Assembly (NCBI GenBank): GCA_963722605.1
Contig: CAVRNO010000004.1
Location: 410,335 to 474,334 of the forward strand
Reading direction: 5' to 3'
From: Candidatus Binataceae bacterium
GTDB taxonomy: Bacteria; Desulfobacterota; Binatia; Binatales; Binataceae
Length of the DNA stretch: 64,000 nucleotides
Numbering within the stretch: position 1 is the first letter of the stretch; each line of letters opens with the position of its first letter. The position numbers were made by a program, and so were the translations under genes. Of this stretch, positions 17,252 through 37,551 are shown piece by piece. The notes under the pieces were generated by a model. That model did not search any database. It was not told the origin of the DNA and saw only the letters and a list, made by a program, of their open reading frames with translations.

Positions 17252-17264
17252 GAATCGGACTGCG

Positions 17265-18689
<1,425 letters not shown>

Positions 18690-20569: not shown

Positions 20570-20860
20570 CGGCGCGCGCCAGGCTCCAGAACGAGGAGCC
20601 CCGGCGCGCCGGGCTGGGAGCGAGCAGACTCAGGCAGCGGCTGGCGCGGAGTTCGCCGGCGGTATGCCCGGGGAGTTGTGCTCGCCCGTGCCCTGACCAC
20701 CCAAAGCGGCCAAGTGAAAGGGCTGGGACGGGTAGCCGGCGCAATCTCATCAGAGAGCGACCCAGGACAAGCGGGTCCGATCCACGGGATCGGACCGCTT
20801 GCCGCCCGGTAACCGGGCGCCGCTTCCCCGGATACAAGAAAGAAGCAACGCAGGTGGAAT

Positions 20861-22402
20861 ATGCAAACGAGCGGAGATGAGCCGGGCGCGCCGGGACCGG
20901 AGCGCAAGGAACAGCAGACTGGCGCCGAGGCCGAGCGCCAAGTTCCAAGCCTGGCTCGCAACCGGCTGAGCATCGCCGGCCTGATCATCGCCATCGTCGT
21001 GCTGGCGAACATGCTTTCGCTGGCCGGCATGACGATGCTGGGGGTGCAGTTGAACCCCTACGTCGGCATTTTTGCCTACCTGATCGGCCCGGCCGTGATG
21101 ATAGTGGGCCTGTTACTCATTCCGGTCGGGATGCTGTTCGAACGGCGGCGGCGCCGGAAGTATTTGCCGGGTGAGATGCCGCCTTTCCCCAAGCTCGATC
21201 TCAACGAGGCTTCGGTTCGGCGCGGCTTTCTCGGCGCGGTAGGCTTCTCGTTGTTTTTCGTGATTCTCAGCATGGTGGCAAGCTACCAAGGCTACCAGTT
21301 CACGGACTCGCCGATGTTCTGCGGCCAGACCTGTCACGTCCCGATGAAGCCGGAATTCGACGCCTACCAGGGTTCGCCGCACGCGCGGGTCGCATGCGCG
21401 GGCTGTCACGTGGGACCCGGCGCCACTTGGTTTGTCCGCTCCAAGCTGTCGGGCGCCTACCAGGTCTATTCGGTGATGTTCAACAAGTACCCCAGGCCGA
21501 TCGAAACTCCGATCAAGGAGTTGCGCCCGATTCGGGCAGCCTGCGAGCAATGCCACTGGCCGCAGAAGTTCTACGGCGCGCAACTCAAGGTCTTCCCGCA
21601 TTATGGATACGACGAGAAGAACACGCCCATGCGCATCCAGATGCTGATCAAGACCGGCGGTGGAGCTGCCGAGTTCGGCAACGCCACCGGAATCCACTGG
21701 CACATGAACATCGCCAACGAAGTATGGTTCGCGCCTGCTGACAAGCAGTCCCAGGTGATTCCCTGGGTAAAAGTAAAGACCCCTGACGGAAGGACCACCG
21801 AATACGTGGCCAAGGACAGTTCGCTCAGCGCAAAGCAGATCGCGGAGATTCCGATTCAGACGATGGACTGCGTGACCTGCCATGCACGCCCGTCGCATAA
21901 GTTTCTTCCGCCCGATCAGGCGGTCGATGCGGCGTTCGAGGCGGGTCAGCTCGACCCTACTCTTCCCTTCTTGAAGAGGCAGGCGGTCAAGACCCTGGTC
22001 AAGCACTACGACTCGCCGGAAAAGGCGGCCGAGGGAATCGCAACCGCCCTCGATACCTTTTACCGCAATCGCTATCCCCAGATTTATGGCCCGAGGTGGC
22101 CGCAAATCAAAGCTGCCATCGCCGCGGTGCAGGAGATTTACAAAAAGAACATGTTTCCGTATATGCGGGTTGACTGGCGCACCCATCCCGACAACATCGG
22201 CCACCTGTATTACCCGGGGTGCTTCCGCTGTCACGACGGGAAACACGTCAGCGCTGATGGCCGGGTGATTCCCCAGGCATGCGATTCCTGTCACACCGTC
22301 CTTGCAACTCCCACCAGCGTCGCCGAGTTCAAGCATCCGGTTGATCTGAGCGATGTAGGCGGCGCGACCTGTAGCACCTGTCACAGCGGGGGCGTGCTCT
22401 AG
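20861..22402 (+). CDS. inner-membrane heptahaem c-type cytochrome, ImcH-like (NapC/NirT-related quinol dehydrogenase)
   Basis: N-terminal TM helices (…LIIAIVVLANMLSLAGMTMLG…, …IGPAVMIVGLLLIPVG…), then seven CxxCH: CGQTCH, CAGCH, CEQCH, CVTCH, CFRCH, CDSCH, CSTCH; 513 aa. Confidence 0.7.
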   Translation: MQTSGDEPGAPGPERKEQQTGAEAERQVPSLARNRLSIAGLIIAIVVLANMLSLAGMTMLGVQLNPYVGIFAYLIGPAVMIVGLLLIPVGMLFERRRRRKYLPGEMPPFPKLDLNEASVRRGFLGAVGFSLFFVILSMVASYQGYQFTDSPMFCGQTCHVPMKPEFDAYQGSPHARVACAGCHVGPGATWFVRSKLSGAYQVYSVMFNKYPRPIETPIKELRPIRAACEQCHWPQKFYGAQLKVFPHYGYDEKNTPMRIQMLIKTGGGAAEFGNATGIHWHMNIANEVWFAPADKQSQVIPWVKVKTPDGRTTEYVAKDSSLSAKQIAEIPIQTMDCVTCHARPSHKFLPPDQAVDAAFEAGQLDPTLPFLKRQAVKTLVKHYDSPEKAAEGIATALDTFYRNRYPQIYGPRWPQIKAAIAAVQEIYKKNMFPYMRVDWRTHPDNIGHLYYPGCFRCHDGKHVSADGRVIPQACDSCHTVLATPTSVAEFKHPVDLSDVGGATCSTCHSGGVL

Positions 22403-22433
22403 CGCATCGGCGCGGCGCAGGCGGGAGGAACAA

Positions 22434-23807
22434 ATGGCGCAGGGATCATGGGGGATGGTTAGCTCCGGGCGGACGGCTGGCGGCCGCGGGCGCATCGCGT
22501 CCGCTATTGCCGCAATGATGCTGTGCGCGGTTGCGATGGGCCATGCCGCTGCTGCGACGAAGGCCGCTGTGACGCCGGCCGCGACGACGAAGGCGGCTGC
22601 TGCGACCAAGGCTGCTGCGGCGACGAAGCCCACCGCGACGACGCCGGCCGCCGCGACGACGAAGACGCCCACCGATAAGGATTGCCTGGGCTGCCATAAT
22701 CTCAAGGCTAGCGCCAAGTTGCAGGCGCGGCCGGTCAGCGTGTACGTCAATGCGGAGATCTACGAGCCATCGATCCACGCCAAGCAGGGGTGTGTTTCCT
22801 GCCATACCGACATCCGTTCCTTTCCGCATCCCGATCCGGTCACGCCGGTTTCATGCGCCGGCTGCCACGCGAAAGAAACCTCGGCCTACGCGATCAGCGT
22901 TCACGCAACCGCCGAGCGGGAGAAGAAGAGCCGCTTTCCGGCCTGCCTCAATTGTCACGGAAACCCCCACGGCCTGCGGGCGAAGACCGACCCGAAGTCG
23001 CGAGTCTATCCGCTCAACCTGCCGCGCACCTGCGGCACATGCCACGGAAACCCCGAGATTGCCAAGAAATATGGCTTTCCGGACGTGTACGGGCTTTACA
23101 TGGATTCGATTCACGGCTTCGCCCTGACCAGCGACGGGCTGCTGGTGGCCGCCACCTGCGCCAGTTGCCATGGGGCGCATGACGTCCTTAGCAGAAAGGA
23201 TCCGAAGAGCCGGACCTTCCCCAGAAATGTACCTGCCACCTGTGGCGGGTGCCATGCCGGCGTCCAAACCGATTACCTCGCCGGAGCGCACGGCACCGCG
23301 ATGATCGCCGGGCGCCCGAATGCTCCGGTATGCACGAATTGCCATACGGCCCATCAGATTGCCCAGGTGGAGGGCGCGAGCTGGCAACTCAAAACTGTCG
23401 CCACCTGTGGCAACTGCCACAAGGCCAGGCTGCAAAGCTACCACGATACTTTCCACGGGCAGGTGACCCAACTGGGTTTCGTCGCCACGGCGCGGTGCTG
23501 GAGTTGCCATGGCTCTCACTTGATTCTTCGGGCCTCCAATCCCAAGTCCAAGGTGGCGCCGGCCAACCTGCCGATTACCTGCGGCAAATGCCACAAAGGC
23601 GTAACCGCGAGCTTTGTCAGCTACGAGCCACATCCCAATCCGCACGACCGGAAGCAGAACCCGGGGTTATATTACGCGGCGCTATTTATGAACCTGCTGC
23701 TTTCGGCGGTTTTCCTCTTCTTCGGCATGCACACGGCGCTATGGCTTGCGCGGTCGTCGATGGGCGGGTCGCAGGGGAATGGCAATGGAGAAAGCGGTGA
23801 ACAGTAA
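22434..23807 (+). CDS. periplasmic 11-haem c-type cytochrome with C-terminal membrane anchor
   Basis: Signal peptide plus Ala/Thr/Lys-rich linker, eleven CxxCH motifs, repeated DPKS(R/K)xxPxNxPxTCGxCH modules, C-terminal TM …LFMNLLLSAVFLFFGMHTALWL…. Confidence 0.75.
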   Translation: MAQGSWGMVSSGRTAGGRGRIASAIAAMMLCAVAMGHAAAATKAAVTPAATTKAAAATKAAAATKPTATTPAAATTKTPTDKDCLGCHNLKASAKLQARPVSVYVNAEIYEPSIHAKQGCVSCHTDIRSFPHPDPVTPVSCAGCHAKETSAYAISVHATAEREKKSRFPACLNCHGNPHGLRAKTDPKSRVYPLNLPRTCGTCHGNPEIAKKYGFPDVYGLYMDSIHGFALTSDGLLVAATCASCHGAHDVLSRKDPKSRTFPRNVPATCGGCHAGVQTDYLAGAHGTAMIAGRPNAPVCTNCHTAHQIAQVEGASWQLKTVATCGNCHKARLQSYHDTFHGQVTQLGFVATARCWSCHGSHLILRASNPKSKVAPANLPITCGKCHKGVTASFVSYEPHPNPHDRKQNPGLYYAALFMNLLLSAVFLFFGMHTALWLARSSMGGSQGNGNGESGEQ

Positions 23808-24627
23808 CGATTCAGACCGCTATTATTTTCGGTTCTCGCTGGGACAGCGATACCTGCACGGCCTGGTGATCATAACCTTTCTGGGTCTTGCCGCCACCGG
23901 AATGACCTTGCGGTTCAGCGAGCGGGATTGGGCAAAGTGGCTGGCGGAAGCCATCGGCGGATTCACCGCAGTCCTATCTCTGCATAAGCTATGCGCGGTG
24001 CTCATATCAGCCGGCTTTATCTACCATGTTGGAGCGATCCTCTTCAGGGCGATAATCAAGAAGGAGCGGGGCCTCTTTTTGGGGCCATACTCGATGACTC
24101 CGCAGCCCAAGGACGCCATGGACCTTTTTGCGATGCTGCGCTGGTTTCTTTGGATGGGTCCGCGGCCCCAATTCGACCACTTTGCCTACTGGGAGAAGTT
24201 CGACTATTGGGCGGTGTTCTGGGGAATGGCGATTATCGGCATGACCGGCTACATGATGTGGTTCGGGCCTTTCTTTGCCCGCTACGTGCCCGGCTATGTC
24301 CTCAATATCGCGCTCCTGATTCACGGTGAGGAAGCTCTGCTCGCCGTCTGGTTCATCTTTATCGTCCACTTTTTTAATTCGCACCTGCGCCCTGAGGAAT
24401 TTCCGCTCGACCAGGTGATATTCACCGGCCGCGTCAGCGCTGGGGATTATCAGCACGAACGCCCGCTGGATTATTCGCGGCTTGGCGAGTCGGGCGCGCT
24501 TGAAACCTTGCGCGCCGACCCGCCTCCCCGTTGGCTCGAGAATTTCTCGCGGGTGATCGCGGTTATCTCAGTCGGAATCGGCTTTTCACTGCTGGTGCTT
24601 ACTGTGATCTCCTTTTGGGCTGAATAG
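23779..24627 (+). CDS. dihaem b-type cytochrome membrane subunit (FdnI/HydC/PhsC-like)
   Basis: Polytopic protein with conserved His in TM helices (…RYLHGLVIITFLG…, …HKLCAVLISAGFIYH…, …YWAVFWGMAIIGMTG…, …LLIHGEEALLAVWFIFIVHFFNSHL…). Overlaps the stop of the 11-haem gene by 29 nt. Confidence 0.65.
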   Translation: MAMEKAVNSNDSDRYYFRFSLGQRYLHGLVIITFLGLAATGMTLRFSERDWAKWLAEAIGGFTAVLSLHKLCAVLISAGFIYHVGAILFRAIIKKERGLFLGPYSMTPQPKDAMDLFAMLRWFLWMGPRPQFDHFAYWEKFDYWAVFWGMAIIGMTGYMMWFGPFFARYVPGYVLNIALLIHGEEALLAVWFIFIVHFFNSHLRPEEFPLDQVIFTGRVSAGDYQHERPLDYSRLGESGALETLRADPPPRWLENFSRVIAVISVGIGFSLLVLTVISFWAE

Positions 24628-25820: not shown

Positions 25821-25969
25821 AATGCTTAAGCGAAGCGGATGAAGCAAGGGTAATCTATAACGAAAGTCAGAACGAGACGAATGTTACCATGTATCGACCG
25901 AATACACTTGTAGCCTTTCGTCACGATTTTTGGTAACGAAGCGAAAATTTGGAGAAAACAAGGAGCGAA

Positions 25970-26377
25970 ATGATCATGTCAGAAAATTCACCGGTGAAGA
26001 TTCGATCGAAAAGCTGGGGCTGGATACCCTCGGCGGCAGCACTAGCGTTGGTTTTAGCGCCGGCCTTGATCTCAACCGCCGCCCGCGCCGACGATCTGAA
26101 AGCCGCAGCCAGCAACTACACGGAGTCGTGCGCGGGTTGTCATGGCGCGACCGGCAAAGGCGACGGACCCAAGGCCGCGAAACTATCGGTGAAAGTGGGA
26201 GACCTGACCGATTGCGCGAAGATGGGCAAGGTCAGCGACGACGTCCTCCTCAAGGTGATCAAAGAGGGCGGCCCGGCGGCCAACCTCAACAAGGCGATGA
26301 CGGGGTTCGGCGATGCCTTTGAAGACAACGACATCAAAGGTCTGGTCGCCTATATCCGCAGTTTTTGCGCGAAGTGA
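25970..26377 (+). CDS. periplasmic monoheme class I cytochrome c (paralog 3)
   Basis: AAGGAG RBS 25960-25965, ATG 25970 or 25976. Signal peptide, CAGCHG, same fold as paralogs 1 and 2 (…GDLTDCAKMGKVSDD…LVAYIRSFCAK). Confidence 0.8.
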   Translation: MIMSENSPVKIRSKSWGWIPSAAALALVLAPALISTAARADDLKAAASNYTESCAGCHGATGKGDGPKAAKLSVKVGDLTDCAKMGKVSDDVLLKVIKEGGPAANLNKAMTGFGDAFEDNDIKGLVAYIRSFCAK

Positions 26378-26483
26378 AGCGGCGATTTCCAACCGGCTGC
26401 ATCGGTCGGAATCAGCGTGCCGACCGATGGGCGAATAGGTGGCAGGAATCGCAAGGAAATTGAATTGGCTGTGTGGATCTTTG

Positions 26484-26499
26484 TGGCATGCCCATTGCT
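26484..26499 (+). promoter_or_regulatory. sigma-54 (-24/-12) promoter of ACIII/Qrc-like operon
   Basis: TGGCATGcccaTTGCT, a near-perfect match to TGGCACG-N4-TTGCW, 45 nt upstream of ATG 26544. Confidence 0.6.
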
Positions 26500-26543
26500 C
26501 CGCCCTCCAAACTGAGATTATCGATTTGAGGTCATCCATCCAT

Positions 26544-27098
26544 ATGAGGGCGACGCCTTGGAGCACGGCATTTCTGCTGCTGCTATGCGGCTCCGCGTTG
26601 ATGCTAGGCGGCTGCAACTGGACGGTCCCGTGGTTCGGGCCGCCGGCGGCGGTGGAACAACCCATTGCTTTCAACCATCGCAAGCATGCCGCCGGTGCCG
26701 ACGGCATCAAATGCGATACCTGTCACAGCTATAGCTCCGCCACCACCGGAACGTTTGCCGGGCTTCCCCAAGTGGACACCTGCATGGATTGCCACAAGAT
26801 GGTGATGCGGATGCCACCGAAGAAGCTGGCGAAGAAACCGCAGTTCGCCAAGCTCAAGCAGTTCGTCGTCCTCGGCCGCATCCCGTGGGAGCGAGTATAT
26901 GCCGAGCCTGACTATGTCTATTTCTCCCACCGCCGCCACGTCGCAGTCGCGAAACTCGCTTGCGCGAACTGCCACGGCGACGTGCGCAATATGGTCGAAC
27001 CGGTTATGAGTCCGGTGGTCAATCAGTCGATGAATTGGTGCATGAATTGCCATCAACAGAAACGCGCCTCGCAGGATTGCATCGCGTGCCACAAATGA
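26544..27098 (+). CDS. pentahaem c-type cytochrome lipoprotein (ActA/QrcA-like electron-transfer subunit)
   Basis: Starts MRATPWSTAFLLLLCGSALMLGGC (lipobox). CDTCH, CMDCH, CANCH, CMNCH, CIACH; 184 aa. Confidence 0.7.
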   Translation: MRATPWSTAFLLLLCGSALMLGGCNWTVPWFGPPAAVEQPIAFNHRKHAAGADGIKCDTCHSYSSATTGTFAGLPQVDTCMDCHKMVMRMPPKKLAKKPQFAKLKQFVVLGRIPWERVYAEPDYVYFSHRRHVAVAKLACANCHGDVRNMVEPVMSPVVNQSMNWCMNCHQQKRASQDCIACHK

Positions 27099-29416
27099 AG
27101 CACCCGGCGGAAGAGCAAAACGCATTGCCGCGCGGCGACGGCGAGCAGCGAGGGATTGCCCGGCGCGATTTCCTCAAGCTGGCCGGCGCAGGCACGGTCG
27201 CGGCCGCGGTCGCCTCGACCGCGGTGGCGCACGCTGTTTCCGGCGCGCTGGAGGTCCGCGAGGACGAGTTTCCGCAGGGCGGGCCGGAATCCGTCATGGT
27301 GTCGCTGTGCGGGATGTGCCCGCAGCGATGTTCGATGACGGTGCGCGAAATCTCAGACCGGGCGGTTGCGGTCAAGGGCAATCCGCTCGATCCCAGCAAT
27401 CGCGGCGGCCTATGCCCGGTGGGCCAAGCCATCCTGCAACTGGTCTACAACCCCGACCGGGTGCGCAGTCCGATGGTGCGGGAGGGCGATCCAAATGCTC
27501 CGCGATGGCGCGAGATAAGCTGGGCCGAGGCGATCGCGCTGATCAAGAGCCGGCTTGAGGCGATCCGCTCCGGCGCCGGAGCGCATACCGTGGTGGCAAT
27601 CGGCGATGGCACGTCGGAGTTGTCGGGACTGATGATGGCGCGATTGCTGCGCGCCTATGGCTCGGCGAATTTCATCGCCGACGAGTCCGCACAGCCTTCG
27701 CACGGGCAGGATTTGACCCAGGCCATCAATGGCCGGGTGGCCTACGATTTCGAGAACAGCCGCTACATCCTGAGCTTTGCCGCACCGTTGGTGGAAGCCT
27801 GGATGTCGCCGGTGCGCCAGATGCGCGACATCGCGGATTTTCGCGCAGGATGGCTCGGCGAGCGCGGCAAGCTGGTGCAGATCGAGAGCCGCCTTTCAGC
27901 TACCGCGGCCAAGGCCGACGAGTGGATCCGGGTGAACCCCGGCACCGAGGGTGTGCTGGCGCTCGGGATCGCCGGCGTGCTGGTCAGATACCAGTTGTAC
28001 GACGCCGGGTTCGTGAAAGACCATGTGGCCGGCTTTGAGAATCCGCCCAATGAGAAATCGGTGCGCGGCCTGCGCGAGGTGGTCCTCCAAGACTATGATC
28101 CCGCCAAAGTTGCGGCCATCACCGGCGTCTCCAGCGAAGTGATCGTCCGGCTGGCGCATGAGTTTGCCCAGATGCGGCCCGCGCTGGCGGTGCCGCCGGG
28201 AGCGCGCCCCGGACGCCAAGACAAAGACTTTTTGGATGCGGCCACCCAGGCGCTGAACGCGCTGTCCGGCGCGATCGACCGGCCCGGGGGAGTGTTGGTA
28301 AACCGCGAACCGCCGCTGGCAGCCTGGGCGCCAATCAAACCGCAGCCTGATCAAGCCAAGCAGCCGCCCCTGCTCAAATTAAGCGAGCTTGCCGCCGCTG
28401 CCGAGGGGGGACATCCGTACCTTCCGAGCGCAGTGTTCGTGCTCGGGACCAATCCATTGTTCGGTTCCCAACCGATCCGGCCGGACGTGTTTGACCGGAT
28501 TCCATTCAAAGTCGCCTTCACAACGCTGCTCGACGAAACCGCGGCCCACGCCGACCTGGTGCTGCCCGACTGCACTTCGCTGGAGCGATGGGAAATCCGC
28601 ACGGCGACCCCGGGATATGCCCTGACCTCGGTCGGAGTTGGCAGCCCGGCGATCGCTCCCCTTTACGGTTCGCGCCCGGCGGCACAGGTGATCCTGGACC
28701 TGGCAAAGGCGATGGGAGGCGAGGTGGCCGGCGCGCTGGCGTGGAGTGATCCGGGCCAGGCGGTGAAGGAAATGCTTGTGGGGCTGCATGGCGCTGCGCA
28801 CGGCGAGATTTTCTCCGAGCGCTTCCGCCGCGAATACACGCGCCCGGAAATGAGGGCGTGGGGCTGGCCGGCGGATGCTTCGATCAAGCGTGATGAATTC
28901 GTTGAGCTGGTCATCAAACGCGGCGGCTGGATGGACCCGCGCTATTCGTTCGGAGACTACCAGTCGGTCTTGAAGACTCGGTCGGGCAAATTCGAGATGC
29001 CGGAGTTGCTGGGCTCCCCACCGCCGGTGGTTGCAGGCCAGCCCGGCTATCCGTTGGACCTCAATTTTTTCCAGCCGATCGCCTTGATGAGCACCATGGG
29101 GGCAAATCTGCCATACTTGCAGGAGGTGGCGGGCGCTCCCGAGGACTGGCCATGGGATTCTTACATAGAGATCAACCCTGCCACCGCTACCGCGCTCGGA
29201 ATCGACGACGGCGACTGGGTGGTGGTGGTATCGCCCATCGCGCAGATCGAACTGCAAGCTCACCTCTATCCGGGAGCGATGCCCAACGTGGTGAACATAC
29301 CGCTCGGCCAAGGGCATACTTCCCTGGGCCATTGGGCTAGCGGGCGCGGCGTCAACCCGTTCAAGCTGCTGCCCGAGGGCGGCGGCCCAGTGAAAGTGCG
29401 GATCGTAAAGAGATAG
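27095..29416 (+). CDS. molybdopterin-oxidoreductase-family large subunit (PsrA/ActB1/QrcB-like), Tat-exported
   Basis: Starts MKHPAEEQ… (ATGA overlap). Tat motif RRDFLKLAGAGTVAAAVA, N-terminal C-x2-C-x3-C…C cluster motif (SLCGMCPQRCS…GGLCPVGQ), ~770 aa with the CISM/DMSO-reductase-family fold. Confidence 0.75.
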   Translation: MKHPAEEQNALPRGDGEQRGIARRDFLKLAGAGTVAAAVASTAVAHAVSGALEVREDEFPQGGPESVMVSLCGMCPQRCSMTVREISDRAVAVKGNPLDPSNRGGLCPVGQAILQLVYNPDRVRSPMVREGDPNAPRWREISWAEAIALIKSRLEAIRSGAGAHTVVAIGDGTSELSGLMMARLLRAYGSANFIADESAQPSHGQDLTQAINGRVAYDFENSRYILSFAAPLVEAWMSPVRQMRDIADFRAGWLGERGKLVQIESRLSATAAKADEWIRVNPGTEGVLALGIAGVLVRYQLYDAGFVKDHVAGFENPPNEKSVRGLREVVLQDYDPAKVAAITGVSSEVIVRLAHEFAQMRPALAVPPGARPGRQDKDFLDAATQALNALSGAIDRPGGVLVNREPPLAAWAPIKPQPDQAKQPPLLKLSELAAAAEGGHPYLPSAVFVLGTNPLFGSQPIRPDVFDRIPFKVAFTTLLDETAAHADLVLPDCTSLERWEIRTATPGYALTSVGVGSPAIAPLYGSRPAAQVILDLAKAMGGEVAGALAWSDPGQAVKEMLVGLHGAAHGEIFSERFRREYTRPEMRAWGWPADASIKRDEFVELVIKRGGWMDPRYSFGDYQSVLKTRSGKFEMPELLGSPPPVVAGQPGYPLDLNFFQPIALMSTMGANLPYLQEVAGAPEDWPWDSYIEINPATATALGIDDGDWVVVVSPIAQIELQAHLYPGAMPNVVNIPLGQGHTSLGHWASGRGVNPFKLLPEGGGPVKVRIVKR

Positions 29417-29424
29417 GAATTAGT

Positions 29425-30123
29425 ATGGGACAGTCGATGCCGCGATGGGGAATGGTGATCGATCTCGACCGGTGCACCGGATGCCGCGGGTGCGTGGTCG
29501 CCTGCAAGCAGGAGAACAACATCGCCCCCTCGACCCAGGAACAAGCTGAGTCCAGCCGCATGATCTCGTGGATCAACGTGATCACGGTGATGGAAGGCGA
29601 TTACCCGGACGCCAAGCTGCGGATGCTTCCGATGCTGTGCCAGCAGTGCGAAAATCCCCCGTGTGTGCGGGTGTGTCCGGTCGGAGCGACCCAGAAGAGT
29701 TTGCAGGGGATCGTCGGCCAGATTTACCCGCGGTGCATCGGCTGCCGTTACTGCGCCTCCGCCTGCCCGTACCAGGTCAAGTACTTCAACTGGTTCCCGC
29801 CCAGTTGGCCGCGCGAATTTAAGCAATCGCTGAATCCCGACGTATCTGTGCGGCCCAAGGGAGTGATCGAGAAGTGCACGTTTTGCGTTCAGCGCCTTCA
29901 GCGCGCCCGCGATCAGGCCGCCTTCGAAGGGCGCAAGGTGCGCAGCGAAGGCGAGTTCGTTCCGGCGTGCGTGGAAAGCTGCCCGGCCAAGGCGATGTAT
30001 TTCGGCGACCTCGACGATCACACGACCGAAGTCGCCCACCTATCGCGCGACTCGCGAGCCTTTCGGGTAATGGACGAGCTGGGGACCGCGCCAAACATCA
30101 TTTACTTAAAAGAGAGCACCTAG
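29425..30123 (+). CDS. 4Fe-4S ferredoxin-type subunit (PsrB/NrfC/ActB2/QrcC-like)
   Basis: Four Cys clusters (CTGCRGCVVAC, CQQCENPPCVRVC, CIGCRYCASAC, CTFC…C…C). Confidence 0.8.
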   Translation: MGQSMPRWGMVIDLDRCTGCRGCVVACKQENNIAPSTQEQAESSRMISWINVITVMEGDYPDAKLRMLPMLCQQCENPPCVRVCPVGATQKSLQGIVGQIYPRCIGCRYCASACPYQVKYFNWFPPSWPREFKQSLNPDVSVRPKGVIEKCTFCVQRLQRARDQAAFEGRKVRSEGEFVPACVESCPAKAMYFGDLDDHTTEVAHLSRDSRAFRVMDELGTAPNIIYLKEST

Positions 30124-31479
30124 GTGGAAAACCGCGATTCAGAGCAAGATGCGATTCTCTTCGAGCCGGTGCTAAAGACCGGGCCCGGATATTGGCTCTT
30201 GATCTTTGTGTTGGTCAGTATCGTCTTGTGGGCGGTGTATGCATACGTGACCCAGTTTCGCCTGGGGCTGGGGGTTACAGGGCTCAACCGGCCCGTATAC
30301 TGGGGCTTCTACATTACCAATTTCGTCTTTTTTGTCGGTATCAGCCATGCCGGGACGCTGATTTCGGCGATTTTGCGGCTATGCCAGGCCGAATGGCGCC
30401 GGCCGATAACCAGGATGGCCGAGGCGATTACGGTGCTGGTCCTGTTTTTCGGCGCCGGCAACATCCTGCTCGACCTCGGGCGGCCGGACCGGCTGCTTTA
30501 CATGTTCCGTTACGGTCACCTCACTTCGCCCCTCATGTGGGACTGTATCAGCATCACGATCTATCTCTGCGGCAGCACGACCTATTTGTACGTCGCGATG
30601 ATTCCCGACCTGGCGCTCTTGCGCGACCGGATCACGGATTGGCGCCAGCCGATCTATCAGGTGCTCGCGCTGGGATGGAACGGAAGCCATGAGCAGGAGC
30701 AGCGGCTGCAGACCGCGATTGCGATCCTGGCGATCGCCGTCATTCCGATTGCGGTTTCCGTCCATACGGTGGTGTCGTGGGTATTTGCGATGACGATCCA
30801 GCCGATGTGGCACTCGAGTATTTTTGGGCCCTATTTTGTGGTGGGCGCGATTTACTCGGGCATCGCGGCGCTGATGCTGACGATGATTCTGCTGCGCAAA
30901 ATTTACCATCTGGAAGACTACCTGAAGGAAATCCACTTCGAGTATCTCGGCGAGTTGCTGCTGGCCATGTGTCTCTTATGGTTCTACTTCACGTTCGCCG
31001 AGTACCTGACGGCATTCTACGGGCGCGAGCCGGTCGAGATGAAGATCTTCTGGGCGAAGGTGACGGGACACTATGCGCCATACTTCTGGACGATGGTGGT
31101 GACAGACTTTGTCATTCCCCTGTCGATCCTGTGCAACGGCAAGACGCGCAAGATTCCCGGAATCGCGGTGGCCTCGGTATCGGTGTGCATCGGCATGTGG
31201 CTGGAGCGTTTCACGATCGTCGTGCCAACCCTGGTCAATCCGCGCCTGCCTTGGGCGCGGGGTTCGTATGCCCCGTCCTGGGTGGAGATTTCGCTGTTTG
31301 CCGGTTTCATCGCGGGATTTATCCTGCTTTATGCGATTTTCATCAAACTGTTCCCGATCATTTCCATTTGGGAAATACGCGAGGGACGCGAGCAAGGTGT
31401 CGCGGAAGTCACCGAGCGGTTACGCGGCTACCTGCCGGGCGACGGCGGGCTTGACCAGCCTGCTAAAGCCGGATCCTGA
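30124..31479 (+). CDS. NrfD/PsrC-family polytopic membrane quinone-interacting subunit (ActC/QrcD-like)
   Basis: GTG start directly after the upstream TAG. …GLGVTGLNRPVYWGFYITNFVFFVGISHAGTLISA… NrfD signature, ~10 TM, 451 aa. Confidence 0.8.
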   Translation: MENRDSEQDAILFEPVLKTGPGYWLLIFVLVSIVLWAVYAYVTQFRLGLGVTGLNRPVYWGFYITNFVFFVGISHAGTLISAILRLCQAEWRRPITRMAEAITVLVLFFGAGNILLDLGRPDRLLYMFRYGHLTSPLMWDCISITIYLCGSTTYLYVAMIPDLALLRDRITDWRQPIYQVLALGWNGSHEQEQRLQTAIAILAIAVIPIAVSVHTVVSWVFAMTIQPMWHSSIFGPYFVVGAIYSGIAALMLTMILLRKIYHLEDYLKEIHFEYLGELLLAMCLLWFYFTFAEYLTAFYGREPVEMKIFWAKVTGHYAPYFWTMVVTDFVIPLSILCNGKTRKIPGIAVASVSVCIGMWLERFTIVVPTLVNPRLPWARGSYAPSWVEISLFAGFIAGFILLYAIFIKLFPIISIWEIREGREQGVAEVTERLRGYLPGDGGLDQPAKAGS

Positions 31480-31559
31480 TCGGAATATCGAGGCTTGGAC
31501 ACGGGAGGCTTGCGCGCGCCGGCTGCGCGCGCTGGGCACTCCCCGCAACGGGAGATAAT

Positions 31560-31955
31560 GTGAAGCGGTTGGCAATTACAGCGGCAAGCCTGACGATCGC
31601 GGGCGCTCTACTACTGGCCGCCACCGGTCCGTGCATCGCGCAGGACTTGGCGGCGGCAAAGGGCAAATTCGATTCTCTCTGCGTCAAATGCCACGGAGTG
31701 TCCGCAAAGGGTGACGGGCCTGCGGCCGCGACGCTGGTGACCAAACCGGGAGACCTGACGGATTGCACCAAGATGCGTGAGGTTACCGACGACACGCTCT
31801 TCAAGATCATCAAAGATGGCGGCTCGGTGGCCGGTTTCGACCAGGCGATGCAAGGGTTCAGCGAGGGATTGAGCGACGACGAAATCAGGGGTCTAGTCGC
31901 CTACATCCGCAATTTCTGCGACCACCCGACGCCCGTCGCCGCAAGCCAACGCTAG
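31560..31955 (+). CDS. periplasmic monoheme class I cytochrome c (paralog 4, ActE position)
   Basis: GTG start with GGGAGA RBS, signal peptide, CVKCHG, …GDLTDCTKMREVTDD…LVAYIRNFCDH. Confidence 0.75.
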   Translation: MKRLAITAASLTIAGALLLAATGPCIAQDLAAAKGKFDSLCVKCHGVSAKGDGPAAATLVTKPGDLTDCTKMREVTDDTLFKIIKDGGSVAGFDQAMQGFSEGLSDDEIRGLVAYIRNFCDHPTPVAASQR

Positions 31956-32054: not shown

Positions 32055-32092
32055 AAAAAGGGCCGCGGGATTTTCGCCCGCGGCCCTTTTGG
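32055..32092. terminator. bidirectional intrinsic terminator between convergent operons
   Basis: AAAAGGGCCGCGGG-attttcg-CCCGCGGCCCTTTT, perfect 10 bp GC stem flanked by A/T runs on both sides. Confidence 0.7.
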
Positions 32093-32124: not shown

Positions 32125-33480
32125 TCACCCGGGCGGGCGAACGGTCTCTCCACCCAGGTAGAACTGGTGCTGCGCTGCGGCGGCGCCGGCGAACCCGTAG
32201 CCTGCGCGTTCCTGCTCTTGCACCGTTCGCGCCCTGCGCGGCGGGATGCCGAAGACCAGGCCCATCCCCGCCAGAAACACCAGGCAACCAAGCGAGTACA
32301 CCCCGGCCATCAGCGACCATTCCAGCGTTGTTGGCGCGTAGGAGGAGACGGCGCCCGTGAAAGCGGCGGGCCGCATCAACGAAGGCAGCAGCAGGTAGAG
32401 GCGCTCGGCAAACACCCCCACGACCACCAGCAGCGAGGCTACTCCGATGGTGGCGGTCGCCCGCTTGCTCTTCGGTAGCCCGAGCAACAAAAGCGGGATC
32501 AGCAGGCCTACGACCGCGTCGAACCAGAAGATCTTGGAGAAGCGGCCGAAGAGCAGCTCGTTGAACACCGCAAGGTGGGGCACGGTTCCCGAGTATCCGA
32601 CGGTCAGAAATTCGGTGAAGATCATATACATCAGCACCAGGATCGCGACAATCAAGTACCGCGCCAGCATCCGTACGGATTCTTCAGCGACCGGAAACTT
32701 AAACAACCGGCGCCCAACGATCATCGACAGCATGACCATGGCAAACCCCGAGACCAGCGCGGAGGCAATGAACAGGGGCGCCAGGATCGAGGTGTTCCAG
32801 CCGGGCTGGCCTTTTACCAGTCCCAGAATCCATGCGGTCACGGAATGGAGCGCCACCGCGGCCGGGACCGAAATGATCGCAAGCACGCTCAGGCAGCGAT
32901 GGTCCCATTCCAGGGAGCGGGGAGAGAGGCTGGTGTGGCCCAGAGTTGCCAACTCCACCAGGGGACGCAGCGACGGATGATCCTGGAGGCGTTGCACCAA
33001 CTGCTGGCGCGCGCTGAAGTACAACAGCGCGAGACACAGAATCAGGTAGCATGAGATCACGGAGCAATCCCACAATAGCGGCGATTCAATGTTCGGGTGG
33101 CGAAACACGTTGAGCATGTACAGCGGCCGTCCGAGATCCATGATGATGAAGCAAGCGGCCAGGACGAGGAAGCTCGCCGCCAGAATTTCAGACATTATCG
33201 CAACCGGCTTCATCTCTTTCTTGTCGAGCAGATGGACCAGCGCGGAAACTGCTATTCCGCCGGCGCTCAAGCCGACGCAGAATATGAAATTGGCGATATA
33301 CAGGCCCCAGAACACTGGTCGGTTGAGCCCCGTCACTCCCAGCCCCTCAGTGAACTGCTGGGAGTACATGTAAATGGCCCAGCCAATCAGCGCCCCGAAA
33401 ACCGCTGCCGCGGCCCAATAGGGGGTCCGGCTGCCTCTTGGGACGTCCATCGTCCCATTCAATTGGTCATTGTAATTCAT
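32125..33480 (-). CDS. second NrfD-family polytopic membrane protein (ActF-like), no partner Mo/FeS genes
   Basis: Starts MNYNDQLNG… (ATG 33480, GAGGAGAAAGGGA RBS). …GLGVTGLNRPVFWGLYIANFIFCVGLSAGGIAVSA… paralogous to 30124..31479. Confidence 0.75.
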   Translation of the reverse strand: MNYNDQLNGTMDVPRGSRTPYWAAAAVFGALIGWAIYMYSQQFTEGLGVTGLNRPVFWGLYIANFIFCVGLSAGGIAVSALVHLLDKKEMKPVAIMSEILAASFLVLAACFIIMDLGRPLYMLNVFRHPNIESPLLWDCSVISCYLILCLALLYFSARQQLVQRLQDHPSLRPLVELATLGHTSLSPRSLEWDHRCLSVLAIISVPAAVALHSVTAWILGLVKGQPGWNTSILAPLFIASALVSGFAMVMLSMIVGRRLFKFPVAEESVRMLARYLIVAILVLMYMIFTEFLTVGYSGTVPHLAVFNELLFGRFSKIFWFDAVVGLLIPLLLLGLPKSKRATATIGVASLLVVVGVFAERLYLLLPSLMRPAAFTGAVSSYAPTTLEWSLMAGVYSLGCLVFLAGMGLVFGIPPRRARTVQEQERAGYGFAGAAAAQHQFYLGGETVRPPG

Positions 33481-33491
33481 TCCCTTTCTCC

Positions 33492-33674
33492 TCAACCGCT
33501 GACGGCTGCCAGCACCAGCACTCCCATCGCTGCCGCCGTCAATAACACGGACAGTCCGATCAGGATGTTAATGACCACGAAGAAAGTTCGGCCTTCATCA
33601 GCATGCGCGGCGTCGCTAACATGCGTGGCACCGCTAACATGTGCGGCGGCGTTAAGATGCGTGGCGGCGTTCAT
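33492..33674 (-). CDS. small single-TM protein with His-repeat N-terminal tail
   Basis: MNAATHLNAAAHVSGATHVSDAAHADEGRTFFVVINILIGLSVLLTAAAMGVLVLAAVSG; ATGA overlap with the upstream gene. Three roughly 18 nt DNA repeats encode the A(A/T)H(V/A)S units. Confidence 0.5.
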   Translation of the reverse strand: MNAATHLNAAAHVSGATHVSDAAHADEGRTFFVVINILIGLSVLLTAAAMGVLVLAAVSG

Positions 33675-33931
33675 CGTCCTGCCGCCGCTGTCCTATGAAC
33701 ATTTCCGAGTCCCGAAGCCGACCCTCGATGGGCGCCTGTCGCCATCCCGTGCGCGCCTCGCAGCGTGAATACCGCTGCAACAGCGAGCGGGGCAACGGCG
33801 ATCAATCCCATCTGGCCCACGACTGCCCAGTCCACGTATCCATACTGGTAGGTGCTGAGCAGCACGGTCAGGACGTTGATCCAGACGAAGATCGCAACGG
33901 CGATCCCAACGGCAGTTCTTTTGGCGTTCAT
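33671..33931 (-). CDS. small two-TM membrane protein
   Basis: MNAKRTAVGIAVAIFVWINVLTVLLSTYQYGYVDWAVVGQMGLIAVAPLAVAAVFTL…; ATGA overlap with the cupin gene. Confidence 0.5.
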   Translation of the reverse strand: MNAKRTAVGIAVAIFVWINVLTVLLSTYQYGYVDWAVVGQMGLIAVAPLAVAAVFTLRGAHGMATGAHRGSASGLGNVHRTAAAGR

Positions 33932-34311
33932 GATCGTTCATCTCCTTGCTGAATGTCTGCGCCCTCGCGTGCGAAGAACAAGCTGACGAGCTTCGCCCGC
34001 GTGGGAGCTGGGTTCACAATTCTGTAGGGACCCGGCTGGTCGAGGCACAGCCAATGGCCGGGAAGCAATTCCCAACTCTGATCGTCTCGCTGGATGACTG
34101 GCTGGCCTTCGACCACCAGATGCCAGGAGCAACCCGCCCACAACGAAGGCTCAGCGAGAGTTGCACCGCCACCGATCTCGATTGCCAGCACCTCCAGGTT
34201 CTCACGCTGATAGAGGACACTGATCTTGGCATCCTGGCGCTGAACCGAACGCAGCGCCGTGCCGCTTCCGATTACGGGCGCCGTATGCCCAATTGCTCCA
34301 TGCAGGTCCAT
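33928..34311 (-). CDS. cupin-domain protein
   Basis: 127 aa, …GQPVIQRDDQSWELLPGHWLCLDQPGPYRIVN… small beta-barrel cupin signature; first gene after the sigma-54 promoter. Confidence 0.6.
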   Translation of the reverse strand: MDLHGAIGHTAPVIGSGTALRSVQRQDAKISVLYQRENLEVLAIEIGGGATLAEPSLWAGCSWHLVVEGQPVIQRDDQSWELLPGHWLCLDQPGPYRIVNPAPTRAKLVSLFFAREGADIQQGDERS

Positions 34312-34353
34312 CTGCCAATCTCCTCGCGTATCGAGGTACTACAGACCTCTATC

Positions 34354-34368
34354 GCAAGCAGGGTGCCA
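34354..34368 (-). promoter_or_regulatory. sigma-54 (-24/-12) promoter driving cupin / small TM / NrfD-like operon
   Basis: Minus-strand TGGCACCctgcTTGC (plus strand GCAAgcagGGTGCCA), about 45 nt upstream of the cupin ATG. Confidence 0.6.
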
Positions 34369-34516: not shown

Positions 34517-35890
34517 TCATCGCTCCTCTTCATCATTTTCCTTAGACAACTTCCGCCATAGGGTTACTGATGATACGCCGAGAATTTCGGCGGCGCGGGT
34601 GCGATTGCCACCGCAGGCATCGAGTACCTTTCGAATATGCTCGGATTCCATCTCGCGCAAGCTGCGTAAGGGGTTTACGGGCGCTGGCTCACGATGCGGT
34701 TGCTCCGCGTGCAGGCTCGGGGGCAGTTGAGCCTGACGGATGGGTTCTCCGGGCGTGGCGAAAATCACAGCGCGCTCAACGACATTACGCAGTTCGCGCA
34801 CATTGCCCGGCCAATCGTGGTCAGCCAAGGCCGCGAGCACCTCGGGGGAGAAATCGAGCGGCGCCTTCTTAAGTTCGTGGGCGTAGAATGCCAGGAAGTG
34901 GCGAGCCAGCGGTATGATGTCTTCGGGACGCTTGCGCAACGCCGGCACCTCCAACTGGACGACGTTTAGGCGCCAGTAGAGGTCTTCGCGGAACCTGCCG
35001 GCCTTGATTTCCTGTTCGAGGCTTTTGTTGGTCGCCGCTATGATCCGGACGTCAACGTCCATCGATTCTTCCGAACCCACCCGCTTGATCTGGTGCTCTT
35101 CCAGGGCGCGGAGGATCTTGGCCTGCATCTCGACCGGCATTTCTCCGATCTCGTCGAGGAACAGGGTCCCGCCGTTGGCTAGCTCCCAGCTGCCGCGCCG
35201 GCTGTAGACCGCGCCGGTGAACGCGCCGCGGCGATGGCCGAAAAGTTCCGATTCAAGCAAGTTGGGCGGGATAGCGGCGCAGTTGACGGTGACGAACGGA
35301 TGACCCTTGCGCGGGCTTTCGGCATGGATGAAACGCGCGATCACCTCCTTGCCGGAACCGCTCTCGCCGACCACTAGCACGCTGCTATCGGTGGCCGCCA
35401 CGGTTTTCGCCAGCCTGAACAGACGCTGCATCGCCTCGCTCTGGCCGATCACCACACCGTCGCCGAACAGATTTTGCAGCTCAAGCTTCAAATAGACGTT
35501 TTCGTCGAGCAGCCGCTTCTGCTCCATGGCCCGGGCGATCACATGTCTAAGCTGGTCGGGAGTGAAAGGCTTGGGCAGATAGTCCGTCGCCCCCATCTTG
35601 ATCGCGGCCACCGCGGACTCAATGGTCGCGTAACCGGTGATCATGACGACGATCGTACCGGGACAGGTTTGCTTGATATGTTCGAGCAGCGCCATGCCGT
35701 CCATGCCCGGCAGCTTGATGTCGCACAGCACGAGGTCCACCGGACCGCGCTCGAGCCTGTCTTGGGCGGCTTCGGCGCTGCCCGCAACCTCGACCGAGTA
35801 GCCCACCCGCTCCAGCGCCTTCTTGACCGATTCGACCACGTTGCGCTCGTCGTCAACCGCCAAGATCCTTCCCAACGGCGTCTCGCTCAT
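34517..35890 (-). CDS. sigma-54-dependent response regulator (NtrC family)
   Basis: REC (…ILAVDDERN…DLVLCDIKLPGMDG…), AAA+ GESGSGKE…GAFTGA, Fis-type HTH. Confidence 0.9.
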   Translation of the reverse strand: MSETPLGRILAVDDERNVVESVKKALERVGYSVEVAGSAEAAQDRLERGPVDLVLCDIKLPGMDGMALLEHIKQTCPGTIVVMITGYATIESAVAAIKMGATDYLPKPFTPDQLRHVIARAMEQKRLLDENVYLKLELQNLFGDGVVIGQSEAMQRLFRLAKTVAATDSSVLVVGESGSGKEVIARFIHAESPRKGHPFVTVNCAAIPPNLLESELFGHRRGAFTGAVYSRRGSWELANGGTLFLDEIGEMPVEMQAKILRALEEHQIKRVGSEESMDVDVRIIAATNKSLEQEIKAGRFREDLYWRLNVVQLEVPALRKRPEDIIPLARHFLAFYAHELKKAPLDFSPEVLAALADHDWPGNVRELRNVVERAVIFATPGEPIRQAQLPPSLHAEQPHREPAPVNPLRSLREMESEHIRKVLDACGGNRTRAAEILGVSSVTLWRKLSKENDEEER

Positions 35891-37551
35891 GCCTTCAGCT
35901 CCGTCGAAAGTGGAAGCACGATTCTTACGGTAGTTCCACCCTGGCCGTCGGGACCGGCCGCCTCACGGGTGCAGCTTTCCATCTCAAGTCGGCCCATGTG
36001 CTCCTCGATTATGCCGTAACTGATCGAAAGTCCGAGCCCGGTGCCCTCGCGTTTAGTGGTGAAAAACGGCTCGAATACCCGCGAACGGTTCTCCTCCGAT
36101 ATTCCAACGCCAGTGTCCTTGACCTCGATCGTCAGCGAATTGCCGGTGAGCTGTGCACTGACCGACAGGCGGCCTCCGCTTTCCATCGCCTGGGCGGCGT
36201 TAACGAACAGGTTGGTGAAAACCTGCACCATTCGCTCGGAGTCCCAGAAAACTTCGGGAAGGCCGGCTTCGATTCGGCGCTCAACGCTGATGCCGCGGAG
36301 TTCGATTTCATGCTCGGCCAGCCGCAACGCCTGATCGATCACATCCTCAGGCCTGCATAGCGCCTTGCGCAGGTCGTGGCGGCGCGAAAAAGCGCGCAAG
36401 TCCTCGATGATGCGCCTGCAACGGCCGGCATCTTCGTCGATCCTCTTAAGCTCACCGTAAAGCGGGGAGTCATGCCCGACCTCTTCGATCAGCAGGTTAG
36501 CGTTCATCAGGATGCCGGTCAGCGGGTTGTTGAGTTCATGGCACACGCCGCTGGCGAGCAACCCGAGCGAGGCGAGCTTCTCCGACTGGCGAAGCGCCTC
36601 GTCCTTTCGCTTCAGTTCCTCGGTCCGCCGCATGACGCGCTCCTCGAGGGTGCGGCTGTACCGGTTCAGCTGATCGCGATAGCGCTGTACCTCCTCCACC
36701 ATCGCGTTGAACGACAGGGCCAGTTCACCGATCTCGCCCAATCCGACCATCACTCGGTATCCCCAGTCTCCCGCCCTGACGCGGCGAGTGCCCTGGAGCA
36801 GACTCTGGATGGGGCGCGAGACCCGGTCCGCCAGGAAGGCCGCGATGCACGAGCCCATCACCACCACCGCAACGCTTACCAGGATCATCAGCGTCAATGC
36901 GCGCTCGCTCAGCGCCTGCGACTGTTCGCGCAAGACCGCGACCCGTTTGACCAGGATGTCCGCCATCGTCTGGAGTCGGTGACTTATCCCGGAAACCAGC
37001 AGGTCGACATCGTCCGCCTCGCCCGGGCGGGATGACTGTACGCTCGGGCCCGCGGCGTCGAAGACCTTGAGGCCTTTGATCCGGAGCCGCTCGAACTTGG
37101 GGCTGAGTGAAGCCGCCATCTCTTTGGTCGTCAACAGCGAGTTCCCGTGACAGGAGGCCGAGGCGCATGACGTGAGTTGCTGCTGTGCCGAATGCACCGC
37201 GCCCTCGAACTCCTGCGGGCCGCCGTCGCGCCGGTGCAGCAGGAAAGCCCCCACCGTCGCGTCTGCCCTAAAGAGTGCCAGTTGTATATGGTCGGTGGCC
37301 TCGAGCGACAGGCTGATTTCGTCGAGTTGGCGGTTGACGGCGACCAGCGAGCGGATCGAATAGATCGTGAAAAGCCCCAACAGGATCGTCCCTGGTATGG
37401 TGGCGATTAGGTAGCCTAGTATGAAACGGCGGGTCAGATTCCCCCTGCGGGCCTTATTCTGAAGCTCGCTCTGCGGCTTGGAATTGTCGTCGTGGTTGGT
37501 ATTGATCGGGCCCGCGCTGGAGACGAGCGCCGCTGGCGCGTCGGGAATCAC
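35887..37551 (-). CDS. membrane sensor histidine kinase (2 TM, periplasmic domain with CX4CH motif, HAMP, HisKA, HATPase)
   Basis: TM1 …FILGYLIATIPGTILLGLFTIYSI…, periplasmic ~150 aa including QLTSCASASCHGNS (nt ~37147-37170), TM2 …LTLMILVSVAVVVMGSCIAAFL…, then …SGVCHELNNPLTGI… H-box and N/G boxes. Confidence 0.85.
   Translation of the reverse strand: MIPDAPAALVSSAGPINTNHDDNSKPQSELQNKARRGNLTRRFILGYLIATIPGTILLGLFTIYSIRSLVAVNRQLDEISLSLEATDHIQLALFRADATVGAFLLHRRDGGPQEFEGAVHSAQQQLTSCASASCHGNSLLTTKEMAASLSPKFERLRIKGLKVFDAAGPSVQSSRPGEADDVDLLVSGISHRLQTMADILVKRVAVLREQSQALSERALTLMILVSVAVVVMGSCIAAFLADRVSRPIQSLLQGTRRVRAGDWGYRVMVGLGEIGELALSFNAMVEEVQRYRDQLNRYSRTLEERVMRRTEELKRKDEALRQSEKLASLGLLASGVCHELNNPLTGILMNANLLIEEVGHDSPLYGELKRIDEDAGRCRRIIEDLRAFSRRHDLRKALCRPEDVIDQALRLAEHEIELRGISVERRIEAGLPEVFWDSERMVQVFTNLFVNAAQAMESGGRLSVSAQLTGNSLTIEVKDTGVGISEENRSRVFEPFFTTKREGTGLGLSISYGIIEEHMGRLEMESCTREAAGPDGQGGTTVRIVLPLSTELKA

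Follow-up and report, generated by a model that had tools for sequence, protein, structure and literature searches.

Organization of the locus

We analysed a 64,000-nucleotide stretch of the genome of Candidatus Binataceae bacterium (assembly GCA_963722605.1, contig CAVRNO010000004.1, positions 410,335 to 474,334), called the window below, with positions counted from its first letter. Its operon at 26484–31955 can be read, with moderate confidence, as encoding a four-subunit quinone:cytochrome c complex of the clade that holds alternative complex III (ACIII) and Qrc, which would run from quinol to cytochrome c and whose molybdopterin-family subunit would be non-catalytic. A sequence-only reading had listed a lipoprotein pentahaem cytochrome, an exported molybdopterin-family protein, an iron-sulfur (FeS) protein, an NrfD-type membrane protein and a monohaem cytochrome, and this gene set is present, as are the peptide strings quoted for it. 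The promoter motif that it placed 45 nt upstream exists as well, although the measured distance to the ATG is 44 nt. The features are as follows.

26484–26499, plus strand: sigma-54-type -24/-12 motif TGGCATGCCCATTGCT, 44 nt before the ATG of A
26544–27098, plus strand: subunit A, pentahaem cytochrome c, 184 aa, five CxxCH, true ATG at 26544
27095–29416, plus strand: subunit B, molybdopterin-family protein with a twin-arginine translocation (Tat) signal, 773 aa, QrcB/ActB1-like
29425–30123, plus strand: subunit C, ActB2/QrcC-like ferredoxin, 232 aa, four complete Cys groups
30124–31479, plus strand: subunit D, ActC-type NrfD membrane subunit, 451 aa
31560–31955, plus strand: class I monohaem cytochrome c with signal peptide, 131 aa
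32056–32090, both directions: bidirectional intrinsic terminator, a 14-bp stem between A and T runs, common to this operon and a convergent one

The genes are tightly packed: A and B overlap by ATGA, 8 nt separate B from C, and C and D are directly adjacent. The hairpin at 32056–32090 closes the operon and parts it from the convergent one. Near-identical copies of the locus were found in one ENA metagenome contig and one NCBI assembly.

Subunits A, C and D are homologous to those of alternative complex III

In phmmer searches, A matches ActA of four solved ACIII complexes (8k9e_A at 7e-25, and 6btm_A, 6f0k_A and 6lod_A down to 1e-16). Its N-terminal signal ends in LGGC, and either a signal anchor or a lipobox would tether it to the membrane. 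C matches the C-terminal FeS domain of ActB (6f0k_B 797–1023, 1e-56) better than it does ArrB or PsrB, and D aligns near end-to-end with the ten-helix ActC of the four complexes (6lod_C at 1e-73, and 6btm_C, 6f0k_C and 8k9e_C down to 1e-65). Among NCBIfam models, QrcA, QrcB and QrcC score best for A, B and C, and none reaches its cut-off (84 bits against 180, 291 against 440 and 291 against 400, respectively), while D scores 252 bits in its ActC match and 39 bits with the QrcD model (cut-off 570). These matches bear out the proposal of an ACIII/Qrc-like complex with a split B subunit.

C has cysteine at all 14 correctly indexed cluster positions, as do 79 of the 84 related C sequences aligned, and on this basis four [4Fe-4S] clusters are predicted. 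The position that sets it apart lies in the group-III motif, CIGCRYCASACP in the window (CIGCRYC), which reads CIGTRYC or CVGTKYC in ActB (R. marinus, 8k9e); in our alignment, Thr at this site is confined to the two ActB references. This Cys to Thr substitution is what gives ACIII its [3Fe-4S] cluster, the quinol-proximal one, with a potential of +140 mV (PMC5928083). Since C has no signal peptide of its own, it would be exported together with B via Tat.

We mapped onto D the residues of R. marinus ActC listed by Calisto and Pereira (PMC8076601). All 13 residues of the N-side half-channel are kept, as are five of the six P-side residues, Tyr323 being replaced by Thr. The quinol site, whose residues are more than 95% conserved in 521 ActC sequences (PMC8076601), keeps Ser164 and Asp169, with His139 replaced by Asp117 and Asp253 by Val220. 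The resulting signature of Asp, Val/Ile and Thr recurs in 46 of 51 related D sequences with ActC-type channels, whereas the three solved ActC have His, Asp and Tyr. As a reference for Qrc we used a validated Qrc locus from a Desulfobacteraceae genome (L079), in which QrcA scores 257 bits (cut-off 180), QrcB 556 (440), QrcC 447 (400) and QrcD 681 (570). D is only 21% identical to this QrcD, which itself has Asp in the column of ActC His139.

The large subunit probably lacks a molybdenum site

B carries a twin-arginine signal (ARRDFLK) and the Pfam domains Molybdop_Fe4S4, Molybdopterin and Molydop_binding. Among PDB sequences it matches ArrA (2e-46), PsrA (3e-41) and, weakly, ActB (5e-11); its scores with the NCBIfam models PhsA (275 bits, cut-off 694) and ArrA (181, cut-off 1600) fall far short. 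An AlphaFold model of B (predicted local distance difference test score, pLDDT, 86.6) has ArrA and PsrA as its nearest Foldseek structures (template modelling score, TM, 0.70–0.73), with ActB outside the top 50; such a match shows the fold and cannot decide whether a cofactor is present. A neighbour-joining tree of B, which carries no support values, was used descriptively.

The sequence-only reading had suggested that B may be a genuine catalytic subunit of the Psr/Ttr type. The residues around the expected Mo site argue against this. PsrA (SLCTAPRE) and ArrA (SSVCAEAHK) have their Mo-ligand Cys opposite Pro and Gln of B in phmmer alignments. When the proteins of 80 related loci were aligned with ArrA and PsrA, Cys was found in the ligand column of ArrA, PsrA and 13 loci (HSSICADG), while four residues are deleted at this place in window B and its relatives from Binatia (ADE----SAQPSH, in the loop after GSPN). 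The loop contains no conserved candidate ligand residue except one Ser (PSH/PSD) in four Binatia sequences. The fourth FS0 Cys is followed by a basic residue that connects cluster and pterin, Arg in PsrA and ArrA (CPRG/CPRQ) and Lys in all Cys-bearing relatives (CPKG); B has Val here (CPVGQ). Most other Cys-less relatives retain Lys or Arg, so this loss is specific to the Binatia/Gemmatimonadota branch.

At the Mo ligand, the same alignment shows a gap in B; for the site of the bis-molybdopterin guanine dinucleotide cofactor, 103 columns invariant in ArrA and the 13 Cys-bearing relatives served as a proxy. B keeps 68% of these columns, the lowest share among all loci, and is as degenerate as the validated QrcB, which keeps 73%; ETAxxADLVLP and GTNP are retained, and the EGR segment of ArrA and the Cys-bearing relatives reads STM in B. 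The score of window B to ArrA is 162 bits, as compared with 417 for a Cys-bearing relative. Across the related loci, B is 33–40% identical and C and D are 45–70% identical, indicating that B has diverged much faster than its partners. Presence of the ligand also goes along with the type of membrane subunit: Cys-less B pairs with a D with ActC-type channels in 48 loci (and 8 near matches), and Cys-bearing B with a different NrfD type in 8 loci, these loci being phylogenetically non-independent. From this pattern of residues, B likely binds neither Mo nor W, and it is probably not a catalytic molybdoenzyme.

Three further B proteins, two from Methylomirabilota/NC10 (L025, L035) and one other (L031), have a Cys one position off the ligand column (SGCEAS, MGCDTS), which in L035 at least is paired with an ActC-channel membrane subunit. 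These may be intermediate between B subunits with and without catalytic function.

QrcB also carries the FS0 motif

The FS0 cysteines of B are C72, C75, C79 and C107 (C-x2-C-x3-C-x27-C), which are invariant in 60 family members, and the motif is present in 69 of the 71 related loci scored. It had been taken to separate B from cofactor-less QrcB, a distinction that fails. The validated QrcB carries it (CTLCPGGC...GIC) with the Cys spacing of window B, as do 118 of its 120 closest protein clusters, 112 of those with the x27 spacing; several of the 120 are named QrcB by NCBI or JGI, and Desulfovibrio-type QrcB lies outside this sample. CX2CX3CX27C has also been described by Kato et al. (2015) in the split ActB1 of "ACIII-like" clusters of neutrophilic iron-oxidisers (PMC4643136). 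Because validated QrcB and its relatives possess the motif, it is not distinctive of B.

Neither does the motif prove that a cluster is bound. The canonical fused ActB1 is free of prosthetic groups by structure (PMC5928083), and QrcB has been reported to be free of a Mo/W-pterin cofactor (PMC6303296, PMC13059093), with recent work describing it as without redox cofactor (PMC13059093). In some lineages the cluster site is dispensable, as four loci from metagenome-assembled genomes (MAGs) of Fibrobacteria and Planctomycetota (L067, L068, L075, L077) have Gly in place of the fourth FS0 Cys (LGPKGQ), and one motif Cys is lost in two QrcB clusters (P0139, P0143). B itself probably still holds an FS0 [4Fe-4S] cluster, and strict conservation of the motif is the sole feature that a pure scaffold role does not explain.

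Distribution and synteny of related loci

A scan of GTDB turned up relatives of B in more than 576 species, of which Candidatus Binatus soli (89%), a further MAG (88%) and a MAG of Binataceae (56%) have the closest ones. B, C and D are syntenic in nearly all of the 80 loci fetched. A homologue of A is present in 50 of the 83 loci scored for it, mostly directly upstream of B; in Anaerolineae, 8- or 10-haem proteins are encoded downstream instead. The combination of ActA, FS0-bearing B1, B2 and ActC occurs in Binatia, Acidobacteriota, Gemmatimonadota, Nitrospinota, Nitrospirota, Planctomycetota and Anaerolineae, and such complexes are found in many uncultured soil and groundwater lineages.

Many loci (L011, L014, L016-L018, L032, L042, L049, L054, L062, L063 and others) additionally contain an open reading frame (ORF) of about 410–450 aa with four CxxCH, directly after D or before B, which is absent from the window. 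This recurrent tetrahaem ORF is possibly the counterpart of the "ActE-like protein containing four hemes" reported in MBNT15 (PMC9386147).

Probable cytochrome partners

The operon stands in an island that encodes four paralogous soluble class I cytochromes c, including the terminal gene of the operon (31560–31955) and the gene directly upstream of its promoter.

25949–26377, plus strand: paralogous monohaem cytochrome c; a weaker GG-N10-GC motif precedes it at 25805

The sequence-only reading had drawn a parallel with actA-B1-B2-C…E, which does not extend to the last gene: the terminal cytochrome has no match to ActE in the PDB and no lipobox, and we dropped its assignment as ActE. It is likely a redox partner of the complex, or else a loosely ActE-like terminal haem.

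Two further putative quinol-oxidising cytochrome modules adjoin the operon region. The upstream part of the island (19616–24627) contains two tandem paralogous monohaem cytochromes c, a membrane-anchored 6-haem NrfH/NapC-like protein (20861–22402), an 11-haem cytochrome with a C-terminal helix (22434–23807) and an FdnI/HydC-like cytochrome b (23746–24627). By its composition, it resembles the split CbcL/ImcH-type quinol:periplasm modules of metal-respiring bacteria.

A sigma-54-type promoter and its candidate regulators

Matches to the sigma-54 motif with at most one mismatch number 5 in the window against 1.75 expected, a count reached by 3 of 100 shuffles; taken alone, TGGCATGCCCATTGCT is within chance expectation. 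The sequence-only reading had made its promoter depend on conservation in relatives, and such conservation is found. In two Binatus-like loci whose A proteins are 70–78% identical to that of the window (L004, TGGCACGCGCATTGCC; L005, TGGCACGTCCATTGCC), the GG and GC bases of the -24/-12 elements and their spacing are kept, 43–44 nt from the start codon, while the flanking bases vary. Upstream of A, strong motifs are also seen in a Nitrospirae MAG and a small number of others. In distant loci, a motif score of at least 18 is seen upstream of A in 13% of cases, as compared with 2.8% of random 300-bp windows, and operon starts vary among these loci. In a near-identical strain (L002, GCA_052916065.1), a 54-bp deletion takes out exactly the promoter region (L002:922-1052 versus window 26378–26560), which could be a natural variant or an assembly artefact.

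The candidate regulatory features are listed below.

26400–26429, plus strand: perfect inverted repeat of 10 nt, CATCGGTCGG-N10-CCGACCGATG, located after the upstream cytochrome c gene and before the promoter
34517–35890, minus strand: NtrC-type sigma-54 activator, nearest candidate regulator
35887–37551, minus strand: HAMP histidine kinase, partner of the 34517–35890 activator and, with it, nearest candidate regulator
15518–18689: second NtrC-type two-component pair, directly upstream of the cytochrome island, its NtrC at 17148–18689

Three NtrC-type regulators had been counted within 20 kb of the operon. Two of them are (17148–18689 and 34517–35890), and the third activator, at about 57.1–58.4 kb, lies about 25 kb away. 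NtrC-type genes are close to the complex in many distant phyla too. As the motif is conserved in relatives, sigma-54 control of the operon is plausible, and transcription would then depend on one of the adjacent NtrC-type two-component systems. The inverted repeat may be an activator site or a terminator stem.

The convergent operon and other features of the window

Beyond the shared terminator lies an operon that also has a sigma-54-type motif.

32125–34368, minus strand: convergent sigma-54-promoted operon encoding a 127-aa ORF, two membrane ORFs of 86 and 60 aa, and an orphan NrfD-type protein

Two TTTCATTTTG(A/T)AA repeats, spaced 40 nt apart, stand ahead of its motif, TGGCACCCTGCTTGCG (34353–34368, minus strand), which lies directly downstream of the NtrC-type activator and kinase and has a core that is invariant in L004 and L005. 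The soluble 127-aa ORF has no Pfam or NCBIfam match, a cupin match being non-significant (E 0.064). We considered the NrfD-type protein as an equivalent of ActF and dropped this assignment, as it matches ActC only. It has no FeS partner and is without the ActC channel residues, its pattern being that of the NrfD type that accompanies Cys-bearing Psr-like enzymes. L004 and a Gemmatimonadota MAG (L046) have this gene set next to the complex too, and L005 has it without the NrfD gene.

Elsewhere in the window, a sigma-54-like motif TGGCACGCGCGGTGCT is found about 400 nt upstream of kdpA, which is followed by kdpB (49402–53607), and a gene for an IS1595-family transposase lies at the window end (62998–63912).

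Comparison with known complexes

With canonical ACIII (R. marinus, Flavobacterium johnsoniae and Roseiflexus castenholzii; 6F0K, 6BTM and 6LOD, in addition to 8K9E), the operon shares a pentahaem ActA, an FeS module homologous to ActB2, the periplasmic orientation, an ActC-type D with every N-side channel residue and Glu394/Arg395, and a molybdopterin-like subunit without Mo ligand. It differs in that B is split into two genes, with B1 keeping the FS0 Cys where ActB1 is cofactor-free (PMC5928083), in the second group-III Cys kept in C, with a predicted [4Fe-4S] instead of a [3Fe-4S] cluster, in the three substitutions of D (His139 to Asp, Asp253 to Val, Tyr323 to Thr), and in lacking ActD, ActF, ActG and an ActE-like terminal cytochrome. 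No oxidase gene was found within about 10 kb of the operon in the gene calls of L001, or among the larger window ORFs scanned with Pfam.

With QrcABCD, the operon has in common the order of four genes (cytochrome, molybdopterin-like, FeS, NrfD), a separate Tat-exported B with C-x2-C-x3-C-x27-C, no Mo-ligand Cys and a hydrophobic residue at the Lys/Arg site, a QIESRLS segment that is identical in window B and the validated QrcB, and Asp in the column of ActC His139. The differences are that all four subunits fall short of the NCBIfam cut-offs (84/180, 291/440, 291/400 and 39/570), that the membrane subunit is ActC-like and not QrcD-like, that the host belongs to Binatia and is not a sulfate reducer, and that the partners are class I cytochromes c and not tetrahaem c3.

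The operon also resembles, judged by their published descriptions, the ACIII-like actAB1B2C clusters reported from iron-oxidisers (PMC4643136), MBNT15 (PMC9386147) and, as 'qrcABCD', acidobacteria (PMC10564751). These share the split ActB1/ActB2, the CX2CX3CX27C motif in ActB1, placement in the ACIII-Qrc clade, the lack of oxidase linkage, and the order actA-actB1-actB2-actC that is seen in the window. The clusters of iron-oxidisers differ in also having actD, actE and actF, and many relatives have a tetrahaem protein instead of the monohaem cytochrome of the window. PsrABC, PhsABC and ArrAB resemble the operon in the fold of B, its Tat signal and its FS0 motif, but B has neither the Mo-ligand Cys nor Arg behind the fourth FS0 Cys, the operon has a membrane anchor of the ActC type, which contains additional helices, and a pentahaem subunit has been added.

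With its homologies to ActA, QrcB-like B1, ActB2/QrcC and ActC, the operon is best described as a mosaic inside the ACIII-Qrc clade. All Binatota have been reported to encode actABCDEFG (Murphy et al., PMC8262859), and thus the present four-gene locus is likely an additional, specialized module, the canonical actABCDEFG presumably lying elsewhere in the host.

Proposed mechanism and alternative explanations

In the mechanism that we propose, B and C would be co-exported by Tat, with C hitch-hiking on B, and would dock on D beside the membrane-anchored A. D would bind quinone or quinol at the periplasmic side and carry ActC-type proton half-channels, C would relay electrons via its four [4Fe-4S] clusters, and A would form a five-haem wire to the periplasmic class I cytochromes c, so that electrons pass between the quinone site of D, the clusters of C, the haems of A and the soluble cytochromes. 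B would be a QrcB/ActB1-like relic of a catalytic subunit of the polysulfide/arsenate-reductase type that has lost its Mo site and serves both as a scaffold and to carry C through Tat as a passenger, with FS0 forming the distal end of the FeS wire. Coupling to the proton gradient is suggested by the intact ActC-type channels, and the net reaction would most likely be quinol:cytochrome c oxidoreduction coupled to membrane potential. We favor flow from quinol to cytochrome c because the membrane subunit is ActC-like and the partners are class I cytochromes, and because the host lineage is described as respiring aerobically and the island has NrfH/NapC-like and multihaem/cytochrome b modules of a kind typical for the oxidation of quinol.

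Several observations weigh against this proposal. The quinone-proximal cluster of C is predicted to be [4Fe-4S] and not the [3Fe-4S] of ACIII, and the quinone site of D departs from canonical ActC and shares its Asp with QrcD, which reduces quinone; both features would also fit electron flow in the opposite direction. No ActD or ActF gene is found between D and the terminator. The predicted structure of B keeps an intact four-domain Mo-enzyme fold with ArrA and PsrA rather than ActB as nearest structures, and this intact fold is the main source of residual doubt over B, which also retains motifs common to ArrA and PsrA (ETAxxADLVLP, GTNP). Some Mo enzymes, such as arsenite oxidase, lack a protein ligand to the metal. 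Conservation of the sigma-54 motif is confined to close relatives, and its enrichment across distant loci is weak.

The same architecture might run in the Qrc direction, from periplasmic cytochromes c to quinone, either electrogenically with a low-potential donor or as reverse transport driven by the proton motive force, which has been suggested for ACIII-like clusters in iron-oxidisers. We consider this possible though rather unlikely. The Qrc models as best matches for A, B and C, the Asp in place of ActC His139 as in bona fide QrcD, and the prediction of [4Fe-4S] at all four FeS sites speak for this direction; quinone reduction has been proposed for the ACIII-like clusters (Kato 2015, PMC4643136), and a possibly related cluster in an acidobacterial sulfate-reducer MAG, named qrcABCD by its authors, is transcribed under anoxia (PMC10564751). 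The membrane subunit, however, scores far better with ActC than with QrcD (252 against 39 bits), its partners are class I monohaem proteins rather than tetrahaem c3, the window contains no gene for a periplasmic hydrogenase, a formate dehydrogenase or a Cyc2-like protein, and the Binatota are described as aerobic respirers with ACIII, the lineage being one of aerobic heterotrophs or methylotrophs (PMC8262859). The homology of A, C and D to Act subunits and the reported use of ACIII by all Binatota genomes (PMC8262859) could instead point to a housekeeping ACIII that feeds a terminal oxidase. This is quite improbable for a locus without ActD, ActF, ActG or an oxidase gene in the regions scanned, with a split, FS0-bearing B, quinone and proximal FeS sites that depart from residues more than 95% conserved in 521 ActC sequences (PMC8076601), and a sigma-54-type promoter amid two-component systems, in a phylum reported to have a full actABCDEFG that presumably lies elsewhere.

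A different alternative concerns B, which could be a genuine or intermediate Mo/W-pterin enzyme that catalyses a redox reaction in the periplasm and is connected with both the quinone pool and the pentahaem cytochrome. Its FS0 motif is invariant, its modelled fold is complete and closest to ArrA and PsrA, the HSSIC ligand motif is found in close relatives from other phyla, and the loop Ser (PSH/PSD) is conserved among four Binatia sequences. Set against these are the missing ligand Cys in a loop four residues shorter, the replacement of the Lys/Arg link by Val and of EGR by STM, and a retention of Mo-enzyme invariants that is the lowest of all loci. Bona fide QrcB displays the same features and is reported to be without Mo/W-pterin (PMC6303296, PMC13059093). 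We consider this explanation highly improbable. We therefore regard the operon, read as a quinol:cytochrome c complex with a non-catalytic B, as a further representative of a widespread and already noticed ACIII-like/Qrc-like group, and not as a molybdoenzyme wired to a cytochrome.

Implications

Annotation pipelines label complexes of this kind variously as ACIII, Qrc or "molybdopterin oxidoreductase". Although the locus by itself opens no new question, our analysis indicates that the large subunit is probably not a catalytic molybdoenzyme and that FS0 is common to QrcB, and it shows that the residues of the quinone site and of the proximal FeS cluster differ consistently from those of canonical ACIII, providing concrete positions for biochemists; these points should also help annotation. 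A more speculative and, in our estimate, unlikely possibility is that the invariant FS0 site makes B redox-active and more than a scaffold, either through a wire that continues via FS0 to a further periplasmic partner or through a pterin kept without a protein ligand. Taken with the four predicted [4Fe-4S] clusters and with a quinone site of the Asp type in a membrane subunit that has ActC-type proton channels, such complexes would constitute a third functional class in the ACIII-Qrc clade. If this were true, hundreds of uncultured species would possess a branched, energy-coupled junction of quinone, cytochrome c and a further substrate.

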